In this document: positions 1-4,692 of the stretch, one piece after another
Position numbering within the stretch: position 1 is the first letter of the stretch
Layout of the letters: each line of letters starts with the position of its first letter
Virus record (IMG/VR): IMGVR_UViG_2595698371_000001
Reading direction: 5' to 3' (one strand)
DNA: 16,955 nucleotides
Origin: Bongovirus bongo
Taxonomy: Duplodnaviria; Heunggongvirae; Uroviricota; Caudoviricetes; Vilmaviridae
Program-made: the position numbers and the translations under genes
Notes under the pieces: model-generated
The model's database searches: none
Told to the model about the DNA's origin: nothing
The model's input: the letters and a program-made list of their open reading frames with translations, nothing else

Positions 1-33
1 ATCAGCCCCTCTCTCCCCGGCAAGTTTGAGTGC

Positions 34-64
34 CAAGTATCCAATTCCAATTTGCTGGTATGAT
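34..64 (+). promoter_or_regulatory. Putative rightward promoter, copy 1 of motif CAAGTA-N9-AATTTGCTGG-TANNNT (extended -10 TGG-TATGAT)
   Basis: CAAGTA at 34-39, AATTTGCTGG at 49-58 and TATGAT at 59-64. The same elements recur with identical spacing at 3990-4020. TGn-TANNNT is the mycobacterial SigA extended -10 pattern. Confidence 0.6.
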
Positions 65-170
65 GGAGGGGGGTTTGGGGGGAGGCCTTTTGAACCCCCA
101 ACTGCTGGTCGAAGCCTTGAGAAGCTTCCCATCTGCGGTTCGGCTCCTGGTTGAGGGGTTTGCTGTATGT

Positions 171-223
171 AAAAAACCCCAGGTCGAGTGCGACAAAACT
201 GCAGGTCGCACCTCCCTGGGGTT
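171..223 (-). terminator. Intrinsic terminator of the leftward accessory genes
   Basis: Compound hairpin: CCCCAGG (177-183) pairs with CCTGGGG (215-221) and GTGCGAC (188-194) with GTCGCAC (205-211). A6 at 171-176 gives a U6 tail on the minus strand. The hairpin begins 13 nt past the stop at 237. Confidence 0.85.
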
Positions 224-236
224 GGCCGGGACGAGG

Positions 237-530
237 TCAGGCTGGCGTGAGCGTCAGGTAGGTCGTCTTCACGTACTTGGTGTTTGGCGTGACGGTCATG
301 TAGCCGGTGGCCCCTTCGCCCTCGATGATCTCGTGGTGAATTGGCATGCCGCAGTTGGCGTCTGCGCATAGCGCGTAGGCCCCTTCCTCCCAGCCGACCA
401 CTTTGTACATGTAGTCGCCGGGGGCGATGTCGGTGCCGACGCGGTACATCGCGGACCTGGCCTCCGCTGCGGGGGCGAGTGCGATGGCGGCGCAGATTGC
501 TGCGATGAGCGCGGTGAGTGTGGTTCTCAT
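237..530 (-). CDS. Small secreted protein (Sec signal peptide, 97 aa)
   Basis: MRTTLTALIAAICAAIALAPAAEA| has a basic N-terminus, hydrophobic core and AxA cleavage site. The mature part starts with YRVGTDIAPGDY, resembling the VGxDIxPGxY motif of actinobacterial secreted proteins, and has a Cys pair (CADANC). Confidence 0.8.
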   Translation of the reverse strand: MRTTLTALIAAICAAIALAPAAEARSAMYRVGTDIAPGDYMYKVVGWEEGAYALCADANCGMPIHHEIIEGEGATGYMTVTPNTKYVKTTYLTLTPA

Positions 531-559
531 GAGCCTTCACAGTAGAGGAGAGGCCGTAC

Positions 560-808
560 ATGGCCGTTTGCAAGGTTGAGGGTTGCGGCCGTCGTGTGAC
601 GGCGCGTGGCTGGTGTAGTACGCACTATCGGTGGTGGCGTCAGGGTAAGCCGATGGATCGGCCGGTGCGGACGTATCAGCGATATGAAGAGGGGCCGGAT
701 GGCAGCTGTGTGATTGCCGCTATCCGACCCCGTCGAAGGCTCGGGCGGGAGCCGTTCGCTAAGGAGCTGTCTCTCCTCCAGGAGCTTGGTCTCCGGAAGG
801 GGGGATGA
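560..808 (+). CDS. Small Cys/His zinc-finger protein (CxxxGC...GxCxxHY), no nuclease domain
   Basis: Strong SD AGAGGAGAGG at 544-553. N-terminal CKVEGCGRRVTARGWCSTHY matches the Zn-binding module often found at the N-terminus of actinophage HNH proteins. Overlaps the convergent gene at 759 by 50 nt. Confidence 0.7.
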   Translation: MAVCKVEGCGRRVTARGWCSTHYRWWRQGKPMDRPVRTYQRYEEGPDGSCVIAAIRPRRRLGREPFAKELSLLQELGLRKGG

Positions 809-1190
809 TCCACTCCGAGCGGACTGCGTTCATCCGCTCGTAGAGATCGAGGACGGCGTCGAGGACTGGGTACGAGTCGCCTGCTTCGTCGGCGGGCCCA
901 GTGACGATGACGGTGCCGTGGAGTGAGTCTCGGCCTTCCATCTCGGGCTGGAGTTTCCACCAGAGGTAGGTTGCCATGGGGTTCGTTGGCAAACCGAGGA
1001 GCTTGCCTTCTTCGTTGCACCAGAGGGTGGCGTGCTCGGTGGTGACCGCCTCGATGTGACCACCGACGAGTTTGCGCATGGCGGGTAAGGCCTGGTCGAT
1101 CACGCGCACTTCGCGCGTGCCTTCTGGCGTGATGATTAACGCGCGTATTGACGGTGCTGTCACGGTTGCACTGTAGCCTGTCGTGGTCAT
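759..1190 (-). CDS. DUF3846-like protein (143 aa)
   Basis: Motifs ALIITPEG, LVGGHIEAV, LWCNEEGKLLGLPTNPMAT and LHGTVIVTG are characteristic of DUF3846. SD AAGGAGG. ATG overlaps the upstream TGA. Confidence 0.8.
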   Translation of the reverse strand: MTTTGYSATVTAPSIRALIITPEGTREVRVIDQALPAMRKLVGGHIEAVTTEHATLWCNEEGKLLGLPTNPMATYLWWKLQPEMEGRDSLHGTVIVTGPADEAGDSYPVLDAVLDLYERMNAVRSEWIIPPSGDQAPGGETAP

Positions 1191-1498
1191 GAAATCCTCC
1201 TTCGTCGTCGTGGGTTGCGCCCAGTCACTTCTATAAGCCTTAGTTCACTCCTCTCGGTTGGAGTTAAGGCCCCGCCACCTTTGAAAAGGTAGCCGTCAGC
1301 GTAGCTGTATCGACTGCCTTTTGTCTCCCCCGTGCGGGAGTGAATCCGCAGGAATCTCTCAGTTGAACACCTAATACAGATGAGGCCCTGGATGTAGGCC
1401 ACGCCCTCCTTCTTAACTGTGGTGTAGTCCCAGGCGTGACCGAAAACACGGCACATCCGGTGTTGCGGCTTAACAACTCGGTCTTCTGTGTCGCTCAT
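1187..1498 (-). CDS. Putative Zn-binding protein (C-x3-GH-x-W ... CxxC; DUF1660-like)
   Basis: CRVFGHAW and CIRC provide four potential metal ligands. Basic C-terminus RRRRR. ATGA overlaps at both ends. Confidence 0.7.
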   Translation of the reverse strand: MSDTEDRVVKPQHRMCRVFGHAWDYTTVKKEGVAYIQGLICIRCSTERFLRIHSRTGETKGSRYSYADGYLFKGGGALTPTERSELRLIEVTGRNPRRRRRIS

Positions 1499-1872
1499 TT
1501 ATGTGCGTTCTTCCAAGCTTCTATGACGGCCGGTTTGATGTACCCACGCTTGGAGACTGTGAAACCGTTTTTGCCCGCCCATTCGCGCACAGCGCGACGC
1601 TCTTCCTTTGTGAGGGCCGTGGTGGGATGGGCCGGTGGCTGCTCGCTTACAGCCGGTGTAACGCTCACCTCTTTCTGCGTCCTCTTTGGCCACTTCTTCT
1701 TCTCGTGAGCAACGCTTAGCCACTTATCGAGTGTGCGCTCTAGCTCATCTGCGTGTTCTTGCGTTAGGTCGATCTCATACAAGAAGCCTCGGTACCCGAT
1801 GACTTCGGTTACCGAGGCTTCTTTGGATGGATCAAGATCATCTGTAGTTAGAACAATGACTTGCCGTGCCAC
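1495..1872 (-). CDS. lsr2: Lsr2-like nucleoid-associated / xenogeneic silencer protein (125 aa)
   Basis: N-terminal oligomerisation domain (VIVLTTDDLD...YEIDL...L...W) and C-terminal DNA-binding domain (AVREWAGKNGFTVSKRGYI..VIEAW) align by eye with mycobacterial Lsr2. GTG start with purine-rich SD GGGAGAAAGGGAAAG. Confidence 0.93.
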   Translation of the reverse strand: MARQVIVLTTDDLDPSKEASVTEVIGYRGFLYEIDLTQEHADELERTLDKWLSVAHEKKKWPKRTQKEVSVTPAVSEQPPAHPTTALTKEERRAVREWAGKNGFTVSKRGYIKPAVIEAWKNAHK

Positions 1873-1882
1873 TTCTTTCCCT

Positions 1883-1928
1883 TTCTCCCTGCGAGGAGAA
1901 CACTATCGAAGTGGGGCTAATTTTCGAT
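1883..1928 (-). promoter_or_regulatory. Putative lsr2 promoter/leader: -10 TAGTGT, inverted repeat and SD-overlapping hairpin
   Basis: Minus-strand TAGTGT at 1905-1900. Inverted repeat ATCGAA-N12-TTCGAT at 1905-1928. Hairpin TTCTCC/GGAGAA at 1883-1900. Lies in the only sizeable gap (1873-1949) of the leftward block. Confidence 0.4.
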
Positions 1929-1949
1929 CACATCAGGTGGGCGAGTTGC

Positions 1950-2135
1950 CTAGTCGGCGTGGTCAATTATCGCCATGAACACGAAGGCGATGAGGGTGAT
2001 GACCGCCCACATGCCCGCTCCTACTGCCAGATTGATGGCTTCTGGTGAGACCGTGGAGGCGAGTATGGATCCGAGGAGGGCCGTAACCCAGTAGGTCGCG
2101 CTCAGCCAGCCTAGGACTTGGGTGAGGGCGCTCAC
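1950..2135 (-). CDS. Small membrane protein with two predicted TM helices (about 61 aa)
   Basis: Two hydrophobic stretches: VLGWLSATYWVTALLGSILA and LAVGAGMWAVITLIAFVFMAII. GTG at 2135 overlaps the upstream TGA (GTGA), so it is preferred over the track start at 2156. Confidence 0.75.
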   Translation of the reverse strand: MSALTQVLGWLSATYWVTALLGSILASTVSPEAINLAVGAGMWAVITLIAFVFMAIIDHAD

Positions 2136-2365
2136 TTGGCGTTGGCCCAGTCGCACGAGGGGCCGCCGTCGCGCCGGGACTGGCGAGTCTCGTACACGCA
2201 GAGCACCTTGCGCCCATCGGGCAGGTCGACGTAGTGCGCGTTGGAAGCGACTCCGAAGTCGGAGCTGTTGGCGGTCCCGCCTGCGGGCGTAGAGCCACAG
2301 GCCACTGTCATAGCCCCTACGGGGATGAGGAAGATCGCAGCCAGCATGGTCTTGAGTTTGGTCAT
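2132..2365 (-). CDS. Putative lipoprotein (77 aa)
   Basis: MTKLKTMLAAIFLIPVGAMTVA|C is a signal peptide with a relaxed lipobox TVAC. The C-terminal LPDGRKVLCV...GGPSCDW carries a Cys pair. SD AGAAAGGGA. Confidence 0.8.
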   Translation of the reverse strand: MTKLKTMLAAIFLIPVGAMTVACGSTPAGGTANSSDFGVASNAHYVDLPDGRKVLCVYETRQSRRDGGPSCDWANAK

Positions 2366-2574
2366 GTGTCCCTTTCTGGCTCTCGGTACCAGTCCCGGTA
2401 GGTCTCCAGGTCGGCCCTGAGCGCGTCCGTTACGTCGTCTATGTCGTTGAGCAGATCCGGCGTGGTCCGGTCCTCGTCCACGAGCTTGGTGACGTGCCCC
2501 CTGACGTAGCCGAGGGTGTTGATGGCCGTTCGGAAGGCTCGCTCAGTGCCTTGCCGGTCGAGCCCGTTACTCAT
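2362..2574 (-). CDS. Hypothetical protein (70 aa, helical/acidic)
   Basis: ATGA overlaps with both neighbours and phage-like codon usage. Confidence 0.75.
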   Translation of the reverse strand: MSNGLDRQGTERAFRTAINTLGYVRGHVTKLVDEDRTTPDLLNDIDDVTDALRADLETYRDWYREPERDT

Positions 2575-2837
2575 TGCTCGCCGTTGGCACTGGCGATCTC
2601 CTCCCAGTGGTCGGCGAACTCCTTGGCTTCCTTGAGGGTGTCGGCCATGTAGATGGTGGCCAGTGGGATGCCTGGCTTGGGCCTGACGAAGAGTCGCCAG
2701 CCGACTGGTGTGAACTCTTCGGTCTTGCGCTTTTGGCGAATGACGTAGAGCACATCGGGGTTACGCGTGGGGGAGGCGTGGTAGACGCTGAAACCTGGGT
2801 TGTCCTTAGAGACGTTGTGCCACTTCAGGTTTCCCAT
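2571..2837 (-). CDS. Hypothetical protein (about 88 aa, MGNLKWH...TLKEAKEFA)
   Basis: ATG at 2837 is preceded by SD AAGGAGAAAG. The longer track start (2933) lies inside the upstream gene. Confidence 0.75.
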   Translation of the reverse strand: MGNLKWHNVSKDNPGFSVYHASPTRNPDVLYVIRQKRKTEEFTPVGWRLFVRPKPGIPLATIYMADTLKEAKEFADHWEEIASANGEQ

Positions 2838-3133
2838 ACTTTCTCCTTGATCCAGGTCTTGATGTCGTCGTCGTGGGCCTGCTTGTTCCACATGTCGTGG
2901 GCGAGGCAGCGGACGGCCGACGCGAATGCCCACTCGTCGGCCATGTCTCGTGCGCTGAAGTAGCGCGAGTCGAGGGGGTAGCTGCCGCGACGCATCACAA
3001 CCATCACGTCGTACTCGCTGCCGGTGTCATGGACTCGCGTAACCTCGAACGAGTAGTTCTCGGGCACTTCGGGCATCCGGTCGTACGGCGACTTGACAAA
3101 CCACGAGCCGGTCTTGCTGGTTGGTTTGCTCAT
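2825..3133 (-). CDS. Hypothetical protein (about 102 aa)
   Basis: ATG at 3133 overlaps the upstream TGA (ATGA). The 3' end overlaps the next gene by 13 nt and contains its SD. Confidence 0.75.
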   Translation of the reverse strand: MSKPTSKTGSWFVKSPYDRMPEVPENYSFEVTRVHDTGSEYDVMVVMRRGSYPLDSRYFSARDMADEWAFASAVRCLAHDMWNKQAHDDDIKTWIKEKVWET

Positions 3134-3417
3134 GCCCACTCCACCGAGACTTCAGGCAGGAGATCGGGCCACATACCGTCTCCCAGGGGCCCTTCGTCGG
3201 GGATGGTGACGGTGAGGATCCGGATATCCCGAACAGGACGGTCTGGTTCGCGTTTCTGCCGGAAGTGGTCACTTCGGTGGCATTCGTCGCGGTAGTTCTC
3301 GGCCGCACCCTTGCGGGTGTAGGCCCGCGTCTTCTCGTGCGTCCACAGGTGGGCCCCAATTGCGGTGCGGGGCTTGCCGTCCCGGTACTCGACTAGGATG
3401 CTGACCTGCTGGCTCAT
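3130..3417 (-). CDS. Hypothetical protein (about 95 aa), paralogue of 3414-3644
   Basis: ATG at 3417 overlaps the upstream TGA. Shares RxYxxxGxAxN[FY]R and D[IV]RILxxTI motifs with its neighbour. Confidence 0.75.
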   Translation of the reverse strand: MSQQVSILVEYRDGKPRTAIGAHLWTHEKTRAYTRKGAAENYRDECHRSDHFRQKREPDRPVRDIRILTVTIPDEGPLGDGMWPDLLPEVSVEWA

Positions 3418-3644
3418 CCGACCCATTCCGTCTCGACGGTGCCGTCGGCGTGGATGGTGGTCCGCAGGATGCGGACATCGTGGGGCATGTTCAAGCGCTT
3501 CAGCTCGTTGGCGAAGCGGGTGCGGAAGTTGCGGGCCATGCCGAGGACGCCGTAGGACCGCACGTCTCGCTGCCGGTAGCTGCTGCCGAGTGCGAGGCTG
3601 GGCTCTGGGGTGAAGTTGACCAGGGTGTGCATCTTGACGGCCAT
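3414..3644 (-). CDS. Hypothetical protein (about 76 aa), paralogue of 3130-3417
   Basis: ATG at 3644 in a TGATG overlap, with SD GAAGGAAGG upstream. Shares motifs with its neighbour. Confidence 0.75.
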   Translation of the reverse strand: MAVKMHTLVNFTPEPSLALGSSYRQRDVRSYGVLGMARNFRTRFANELKRLNMPHDVRILRTTIHADGTVETEWVG

Positions 3645-3943
3645 CAGGCACCTTCCTTCACTTCGCCGCGCGACTTCAGTTGTTGCGCGATGGGATTCAG
3701 GACGAGATCCTTGTAGTCCTTCTTGGCCATCAGGTACCGGATCGCCTTCTTGCCGGTGGGGAACCACTGGATCTCGTCGGACTCGATGTCCGTCCTTGGC
3801 GGCAACACGAACCAGGACATACCCTCTGGCGGCTTCACGCCTTCGGTCTGCTTGCCTGGCTCCCACTTGGCGCACAGCCAGTGATCCCACGCGGCCCTGA
3901 ACCTTCCAGGGGTGCCCGGTGGGGCGGTGTTGGTTGCGGTCAT
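3644..3943 (-). CDS. Hypothetical protein (99 aa), first gene of the leftward operon
   Basis: ORF heads the coupled chain. No SD; possibly leaderless. Confidence 0.75.
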   Translation of the reverse strand: MTATNTAPPGTPGRFRAAWDHWLCAKWEPGKQTEGVKPPEGMSWFVLPPRTDIESDEIQWFPTGKKAIRYLMAKKDYKDLVLNPIAQQLKSRGEVKEGA

Positions 3944-3950
3944 GGCGGCA

Positions 3951-3956
3951 ACTTTA
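3951..3956 (-). promoter_or_regulatory. Putative -10 (TAAAGT) of a leaderless leftward promoter
   Basis: TANNNT hexamer 7 nt upstream of the ATG at 3943, with no SD in between. No convincing -35. Confidence 0.5.
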
Positions 3957-3989
3957 TGACGGCCGTAGGGGTGATTACAGGACGTTTAT

Positions 3990-4020
3990 CAAGTACGTCT
4001 AATGAATTTGCTGGTAAACT
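3990..4020 (+). promoter_or_regulatory. Putative promoter of the virion operon, copy 2 of motif CAAGTA-N9-AATTTGCTGG-TANNNT (TGG-TAAACT)
   Basis: CAAGTA at 3990-3995, AATTTGCTGG at 4005-4014 and TAAACT at 4015-4020, followed by SD AGGAGGT (4027-4033) and TTG at 4041. Confidence 0.7.
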
Positions 4021-4040
4021 AGGGGCAGGAGGTACCTCTC

Positions 4041-4364
4041 TTGATCACGCCATCGATCAACTGGGCACGCCTTGAGAATTGCCCCCCAATCTGGGAGACG
4101 CTCTCACTTGAGGACGTTCAGAAGATGTTGCAGGTGGACGTTCAAGAGCTAGCCCATCTGTATCAGATACAGGCCGAGGACGCGGCCGAAGCTCAGGCAG
4201 CCGGTCGGCAGCCGAACTATCGGATTCGCATCCTCATTCGAGCCTGGGAGCGCACACAGGACGCGCATTGGTCCTGGTACAAGGAGATCAGCAACCATGT
4301 CCGCAATTCAGCCACCCGAGGGCCTTCGCGCCTGGGGGCAGCAGCTGTGGGACAAGGTAACTGA
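4041..4364 (+). CDS. Hypothetical protein (107 aa), first gene of the rightward operon
   Basis: Consensus SD AGGAGGT 7 nt before TTG. Overlaps terS by 68 nt. Confidence 0.7.
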   Translation: MITPSINWARLENCPPIWETLSLEDVQKMLQVDVQELAHLYQIQAEDAAEAQAAGRQPNYRIRILIRAWERTQDAHWSWYKEISNHVRNSATRGPSRLGAAAVGQGN

Positions 4365-4692
4365 GACCACCTCGTTTGACCCGGCTGGGTATTACATCCT
4401 GGCCGAAGCCTGCCGCACGGCAGACATCATTGAGCGTCTCAGCGGCGCTCTGCGGGCTGGAAGCTCCCAGTGGGTGAGCCTGTCAGACGAAATCGTTGAG
4501 GCAGTTCAGATTTCAGGCGTTGACGTTGCCGAGATCAATCTCGTCGTCAACCCGATCCTGGGTGAGATCCGCCAGCAGCGGCTCACCCTTCGCCAGCTTC
4601 TGGCACAACTCAAACTCGGTAAGACCGAGGCAGAAACGGTAGAGGACGACCCCATCGCGAAGTTGATGGCCGAGTTCTCCACTCCGGATTGA
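4297..4692 (+). CDS. terS: Terminase small subunit
   Basis: Actinophage TerS pattern: PPEGL..WG..LW..VT, LAEACRTAD, NPILGEIRQQR.TLRQLL.QLKL. SD AAGGAG. Immediately upstream of TerL. Confidence 0.85.
   Translation: MSAIQPPEGLRAWGQQLWDKVTETTSFDPAGYYILAEACRTADIIERLSGALRAGSSQWVSLSDEIVEAVQISGVDVAEINLVVNPILGEIRQQRLTLRQLLAQLKLGKTEAETVEDDPIAKLMAEFSTPD

Follow-up and report, generated by a model that had tools for sequence, protein, structure and literature searches.

The window analysed here, a 16,955-nucleotide stretch of Bongovirus bongo (IMG/VR record IMGVR_UViG_2595698371_000001), matches in its first 8 kb the left ends of SirSheldon, SlimJimmy and Bricole, cluster M Mycobacterium phages of the genus Bongovirus, at 99.3–99.9% identity. 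It is organized as a leftward block of small genes (237–3943) followed by terminase, portal, capsid and tail genes, conforming to the published cluster M layout, in which leftward genes precede the terminase and an integration cassette is present (PMC7953290). SirSheldon encodes a serine integrase at 69288–70748 and about 20 tRNA genes in the same genome; the integrase, together with the published cluster M integration cassette, identifies the phage as temperate. Gene 3 of the phage (1495–1872, minus strand) is an lsr2 gene encoding 125 amino acids plus stop (phrog_1223, E = 4.9e-36; open reading frame and Pfam evidence concur). Its start codon is GTG, with the purine-rich stretch GGGAGAAAGGGAAAGAA directly 5′ of it, the ribosome-binding stretch being contained in the upstream intergenic region (1873–1949, minus strand), and no sigma-70 consensus promoter was found in 1–4400. 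The gene occupies the same genomic position in every cluster M phage examined and is itself already known and annotated, namely as 'Lsr2-like DNA bridging protein' in SirSheldon and Bricole and as 'hypothetical protein' in SlimJimmy (OQ995428.1). With a genome GC content of 61.5%, the segment 1601–2100, covering lsr2 sequence and the upstream region, reaches a minimum of 50.7%, the lowest-GC stretch of the left arm. It ranks among the three lowest-GC islands genome-wide, together with those at 36.55–37.1 kb and 80.4–81.15 kb. The latter two lie outside the window, at SirSheldon 36551–37100 (GC 49.7% versus 61.5% of the genome), between divergent gene blocks, and at SirSheldon 80401–81150 (GC 44.3%), at the right end beside cos, which adjoins lsr2 once the genome is circular; they are candidate Lsr2 target regions. 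Elsewhere in the leftward block, the 77-aa product of 2132–2365 (minus strand) gave a match to phrog_3641 and a weak one to the C-terminus of an HNH endonuclease PHROG (E = 5.4e-06).

The gene 3 product is an intact two-domain Lsr2-family protein, in agreement with the initial annotation, which had called both domains intact from the sequence alone. The N-terminal dimerisation/oligomerisation domain (residues 1–56; 1705–1872, minus strand) scored 53.2 bits against PF11774 (cut-off 29.6), and the C-terminal helix-loop-helix DNA-binding domain (residues 87–125; 1498–1614, minus strand) scored 39.4 bits against PF23359 over residues 89–123 (cut-off 26.9); NCBIfam gave a match to neither a host Lsr2 nor the gene 3 product and is thus uninformative here. 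An AlphaFold2 model built from a 46-sequence alignment had a pLDDT of 88.5 overall, 93–97 in the C-domain and 66–77 in the linker. Its N-domain superimposed on 4E1P with a TM score of 0.84–0.86 and an rmsd of 1.6–1.7 Å at 34% identity, and its C-domain on 2KNG with a TM score of 0.61 and an rmsd of 2.0 Å over 38 columns, so the architecture and folds are the same as those of the M. tuberculosis and M. smegmatis Lsr2 (Rv3597c; 4E1P, 2KNG).

The hook that replaces the canonical RGR, R109-G110-Y111, is encoded by CGT GGG TAC (1540–1548, minus strand; codons 1548–1540), exactly as first read. By gapless HMMER alignment to 2KNG and 6QKQ, SKRGYIKP falls on STRGRIPA and Y111 on Arg99 of M. tuberculosis Lsr2, and in the model the RGY sits in the loop between helices 89–101 and 114–124. 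Helix 1 carries two arginines (1585–1599, minus strand): R92 (1597–1599), a clade signature that takes the position of Ser80 of M. tuberculosis Lsr2 by gapless register, and R96 (1585–1587), the equivalent of Arg84, which is a phosphate contact in M. tuberculosis Lsr2 (PMC8476142). Across the alignments R96, W98, G103 and G110 are invariant, and of the host Lsr2 features the phage protein keeps the Arg84 equivalent, W98, the hook Gly and the first hook Arg. Unlike host Lsr2, it has Tyr as the third hook residue, has no Gly/Arg linker repeats, is only 34–35% identical in the N-domain (19 of 55 residues, or 35%, against M. septicum), and is phage-encoded with a coupled zinc-ribbon gene downstream. 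The canonical cell-encoded silencer features for which it offers no match are the basic third hook residue and the Gly/Arg-rich linker.

That linker (residues 57–86; 1615–1704, minus strand) had been described as basic Gly/Arg sequence replaced by a Pro/Thr/Glu-rich one, which largely holds, with no Gly and five Pro where the host linker is Gly/Arg-rich, but the first ten residues, KKKWPKRTQK (1672–1701), form a strongly basic patch with six K/R ahead of the Pro/Thr/Glu-rich part. The net charges of N-domain, linker and C-domain are −7, +3 and +6 in the phage protein versus −6, +8 and +1 in a mycobacterial host Lsr2, namely that positive charge has moved from the linker to the C-domain. The gene is under purifying selection, with a dN/dS of about 0.13 (range 0.11–0.15), determined as 0.134 for SirSheldon–Reindeer, 0.114 for SirSheldon–Nanosmite and 0.142 for Rey–MrMagoo; Tyr111 is encoded by TAC in SirSheldon and Nanosmite and by TAT in Reindeer, three phages whose proteins are 52–74% identical.

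The occurrence of the hook in cell genomes was sampled without selection on the hook. Searches anchored on the N-domain gave RGR at all 80 Mycobacterium loci recovered with a 53-residue M. tuberculosis N-domain string and in all 28 copies recovered with the Pfam N-domain model from 301 genomes of the phylum. The best 30 matches to a phage-like clade profile in 401 Mycobacteriaceae genomes were RGR as well; second copies in genomes of the phylum (n = 16) read RGR in 14 cases, and HGR and VGR in one each, while weak matches in five small genomes read RGK. The third hook residue was thus basic in all 159 cell copies sampled (Arg 154, Lys 5). The initial annotation had named commonness of RGY in canonical silencers as the finding that would speak against its functional reading; not one of the 159 copies has a non-basic residue there, and RGY sets the phage protein apart from cell-encoded silencers. 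The five genomes with RGK (G339, G425, G490, G563 and G614) are Mycobacteriaceae genomes of 2.1–2.7 Mb, probably Corynebacterium-like, each with a single divergent Lsr2-like protein that combines this hook with a very short linker.

Among phages the position behaves differently. Within cluster M, RGY occurs in the SirSheldon group, Reindeer and Nanosmite, and RGV in Rey, MrMagoo and Aziz; Kumao has RGL, the cluster A phages 40AC, Gail and Jeeves have KGI, Gordonia phage Switzerland has KGV, and two IMG/VR contigs have RGF and KGY. KGR, RGR or TGR is kept in clusters E, J and L, in Gordonia phages ClubL/Sephiroth and in Streptomyces phages, whose Lsr2 proteins are likewise full-length and phage-encoded but retain the third-position Arg and group with cell copies. 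Among the 150 closest Lsr2-like representatives, taken at 50% identity from 1.8 billion proteins, the third Arg is absent in about half of the DNA-binding domains, with Tyr as the commonest replacement. When these 150 were pooled with the query, its database copy and Reindeer, 42 of the 153 proteins (e.g. P0009, P0012, P0013 and P0017) were seen to consist of one N-domain followed by two or three tandem DNA-binding domains, which usually differ in hook (RGM + TGM; RGI + GGY).

A maximum-likelihood tree of 180 single-domain proteins was computed on 116 columns after removal of the three hook columns. It contains a 37-row group (SH-aLRT 80) made up of 13 known phages and 24 rows without an assigned origin, with all 57 cell rows falling outside it. 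Of the 37 rows, 35 lack Arg as the third hook residue (Tyr 11, Val 8, Ile 8, Leu 2, and Phe, Trp, His, Ala, Ser and Thr one each), and the Arg/non-Arg label requires 8 changes on the tree versus 39.6 (minimum 33) when shuffled. The group is further marked by R92, present in 83% of its rows versus 11% of the others, by H56 (89%; the others have Arg in 89%), and by K58, R3, an aromatic residue at 27, T37 and H40. R92 co-occurs with a non-Arg hook at an odds ratio of 66, which after phylogenetic correction comes down to a single independent pair and so to about one independent event. The Lsr2 proteins of cluster M, a cluster A subset, Kumao and Gordonia phages share with the window's protein this tree group, the signature residues and an RG- or KG-hydrophobic hook, the third residue varying by cluster (Tyr or Val in cluster M, Ile in cluster A, Leu in Kumao); those of Rey (cluster M) and Gail (cluster A) are about 40–43% identical to it. 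Separation of the phage-borne clade from cell Lsr2 is only moderately supported: a topology uniting the SirSheldon group with mycobacterial host Lsr2 had a log-likelihood lower by 61.6 but was not rejected by the AU test (p = 0.222), and 116 columns do not settle the deep branching. At the sequence level, RGY is a lineage trait common to these phages rather than a point lesion; in this conserved phage-borne lineage the third hook position is relaxed and mostly hydrophobic, and Tyr is the state it takes here.

Directly downstream of lsr2, and overlapping its stop codon with its own ATG (ATGA), lies a gene for a zinc-ribbon-like protein of 103 aa (P0271; 1187–1498, minus strand), which matches phrog_4480 over its full length (E = 4.5e-38) and has been left unannotated in both SirSheldon and SlimJimmy. 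The protein has invariant C16, H21, C41 and C44 and an Arg-rich tail. Its homologues immediately follow lsr2, their starts overlapping or abutting it, in 13 of the 14 RG-hydrophobic loci for which downstream DNA was examined, namely in all of the six cluster M phages, in four cluster A genomes, in Gordonia phage Switzerland and in the two IMG/VR contigs; in cluster A the pair directly follows a minor-tail or structural gene. The exception is Kumao (locus 644–957), where the RGL-type lsr2 is followed by another small gene and then by a DUF3846-like gene as in cluster M. No partner gene was found beside the x-G-Arg phage lsr2 genes, including those of clusters E, J and L, ClubL/Sephiroth and Streptomyces phages, within the flanks examined, nor did the tblastn matches listed for the partner include a record from cluster E, J or L. 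By tblastn the partner occurs in 39 Mycobacterium phage records, whereas 267 have an Lsr2 match. The linkage, a character drawn from outside the Lsr2 alignment, supports a common origin of the module. The partner is 57–88% identical across phages, whereas the Lsr2 proteins of Reindeer, Rey and Gail are 40–74% identical to the window's Lsr2, and distant relatives of the partner exist away from lsr2 in other Gordonia phages.

For the partner, Pfam returned a weak, sub-threshold match to DUF1660 only, a family for which no mention was found in the literature searched; a PDB profile search gave no match, and the AlphaFold2 model was poor (pLDDT 47). Neither Lsr2 nor the partner had a meaningful match among the PADLOC defence models, and a match to a methyltransferase tail was judged spurious. 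The coupled chain continues with gene 2 (759–1190, minus strand), encoding a DUF3846 protein (PF12957, E = 2e-24), whose start overlaps the partner stop when the long form, with its start at 1190, is taken; SlimJimmy is annotated accordingly (759–1190). The PF12957 match begins at residue 15 of this long form, and with the shorter form annotated in SirSheldon, which starts at 1109, the domain would be truncated.

[quoted passage not shown] The best-known precedent for a hydrophobic third residue is CgpS (Cg1966) of the C. glutamicum CGP3 prophage, which is (pro)phage-encoded as well and, by its published description, has the hook RGI, binds AT-rich DNA, silences the CGP3 prophage and complements an hns mutant (PMC5137423); its recognition sites combine a fall in GC near a transcription start site with a short AT-rich motif (PMC7002338). 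The window's protein differs from CgpS in having Tyr rather than Ile and in belonging to an active temperate phage rather than the cryptic prophage CGP3. In the H-NS family, MvaT with its 'AT-pincer' and Ler have likewise diverged from the Q/RGR hook with DNA binding retained (PMC8476142; PMC5137423), but they belong to a different fold family and are substituted at other positions. No paper was found on the hook split or on the partner gene, and in the literature searched hook plasticity was met only for CgpS (RGI).

From the RGY hook the initial annotation had proposed a possible counter-silencer. Such a protein would co-oligomerise with host Lsr2, poison its filaments through a weakened hook, and so de-repress phage or host genes or hinder superinfecting phages that depend on Lsr2. 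An intact N-domain fold, by Pfam and by the model, and a hook lacking an Arg that contributes to binding (PMC8476142) are in line with it, as are the dominant-negative action proposed for phage Lsr2 (PMC10066036), the counter-silencing caused by overproduced CgpS N-domain (PMC5137423) and the disturbance that an expressed foreign silencer can bring to silencing complexes (PMC8612146). A decoy, however, needs no DNA-binding domain, and the known antagonists are truncated: H-NST and the N-domain-only phage Lsr2 of clusters BD, BK, EE and EH, which share with the window's protein the oligomerisation domain and the idea of interference (PMC10066036; PMC8612146), lack the DNA-binding domain that is conserved here. 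A domain that is maintained under purifying selection (dN/dS 0.11–0.15) and is more basic than its host counterpart (+6 versus +1), with R92, R96, W98 and G110 all present and a hook state that follows the lineage, is not what a decoy would be expected to look like, and the RGI hook of CgpS, a working silencer, also opposes equating a non-Arg third residue with a weakened hook. Mixed oligomers with host Lsr2 are in doubt too, as the N-domain is only 35% identical to that of the host, with clade-specific changes at core positions 25, 27, 33–34, 37 and 40, and the N-domains of M. tuberculosis and C. diphtheriae failed to counter-silence in the CgpS system (PMC5137423). Moreover, productive infection by many mycobacteriophages needs host Lsr2, and poisoning it could be costly for the phage (PMC10066036). 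We therefore consider counter-silencing unlikely, and the other option raised at the outset, an altered specificity for organising phage DNA, fits better. Still far less credible is an inert passenger, i.e. a captured host gene drifting after hook loss: although the hook position varies widely in the clade (Y, V, I, L, F, W, H, A, S, T), the three low dN/dS values, the Tyr kept through a synonymous codon change across proteins only 52% identical, the four invariant residues R96, W98, G103 and G110 and the constant gene position in cluster M make this highly improbable.

A more serious competitor, if a doubtful one, is that Lsr2 and its partner form a two-protein module with a role other than silencing, for example a prophage-expressed exclusion or defence function directed at other phages, or organisation of the phage replication zone. 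Lsr2 would then serve as DNA scaffold for a specific activity residing in the partner. Such a role would agree with an overlapping-start linkage kept across the unrelated clusters M and A and Gordonia phages, with a partner more conserved than Lsr2 and present in only 39 Mycobacterium phage records, compared with 267 for Lsr2, and with the placement of the cluster A pair directly after a minor-tail or structural gene; a part in competition between phages has also been suggested for phage lsr2, and lysogens express the lsr2 gene of LadyBird (PMC10066036). Against it stand the absence of a meaningful PADLOC match for either protein, a partner characterized by a weak DUF1660 match and a model of pLDDT 47, an RG-hydrophobic Lsr2 without partner in Kumao, and distant partner homologues that lie away from lsr2 in other Gordonia phages.

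Taken on its sequence features, the RG-hydrophobic Lsr2 is probably a working DNA binder and not a crippled decoy, and with roughly even confidence we read the gene 3 product as a DNA-binding phage silencer or organiser of altered specificity, probably acting together with the coupled zinc-ribbon protein. The phage Lsr2 would self-oligomerise through its N-domain and would bind AT-rich DNA via R109-G110, R92, R96, the very basic C-domain and the basic linker patch, with a sequence preference that probably differs from that of host Lsr2. Its likely targets would be the phage's own low-GC islands, i.e. its own promoter region, the divergent region at 36.5–37.1 kb and the right end beside cos, and phage DNA may thereby be silenced or organised during lysogeny or early infection, probably in joint action with the translationally coupled zinc-ribbon protein, whose part in it is a putative one. 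A bolder form of this idea, which we put forward tentatively, is that phage Lsr2 falls into two functional classes, a host-like x-G-Arg class and an RG-hydrophobic class that works only as a module with the phrog_4480 partner, the latter supplying or redirecting DNA targeting, e.g. by its Arg-rich tail, or gating Lsr2 oligomerisation.

For phage-encoded Lsr2, lysogeny maintenance, dominant-negative interference and inter-phage competition have been proposed as roles, loss of host lsr2 is not compensated by phage Lsr2 (PMC10066036; PMC8612146), and host Lsr2 matters for productive mycobacteriophage infection. What began as a single odd residue has turned out to mark a clear split between host-like and RG-hydrophobic hooks that follows lineage and origin, the RG-hydrophobic class being maintained by selection and linked to a conserved, unannotated partner gene, and this hook split and partner linkage appear new. 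The results suggest that the partner gene should be added to phage genome annotations, and the hook split, the selection and the linkage offer direct handles for experiments in M. smegmatis. If the two-class module holds true, phages would have a chromatin system of their own, separate from the xenogeneic silencing of the host.
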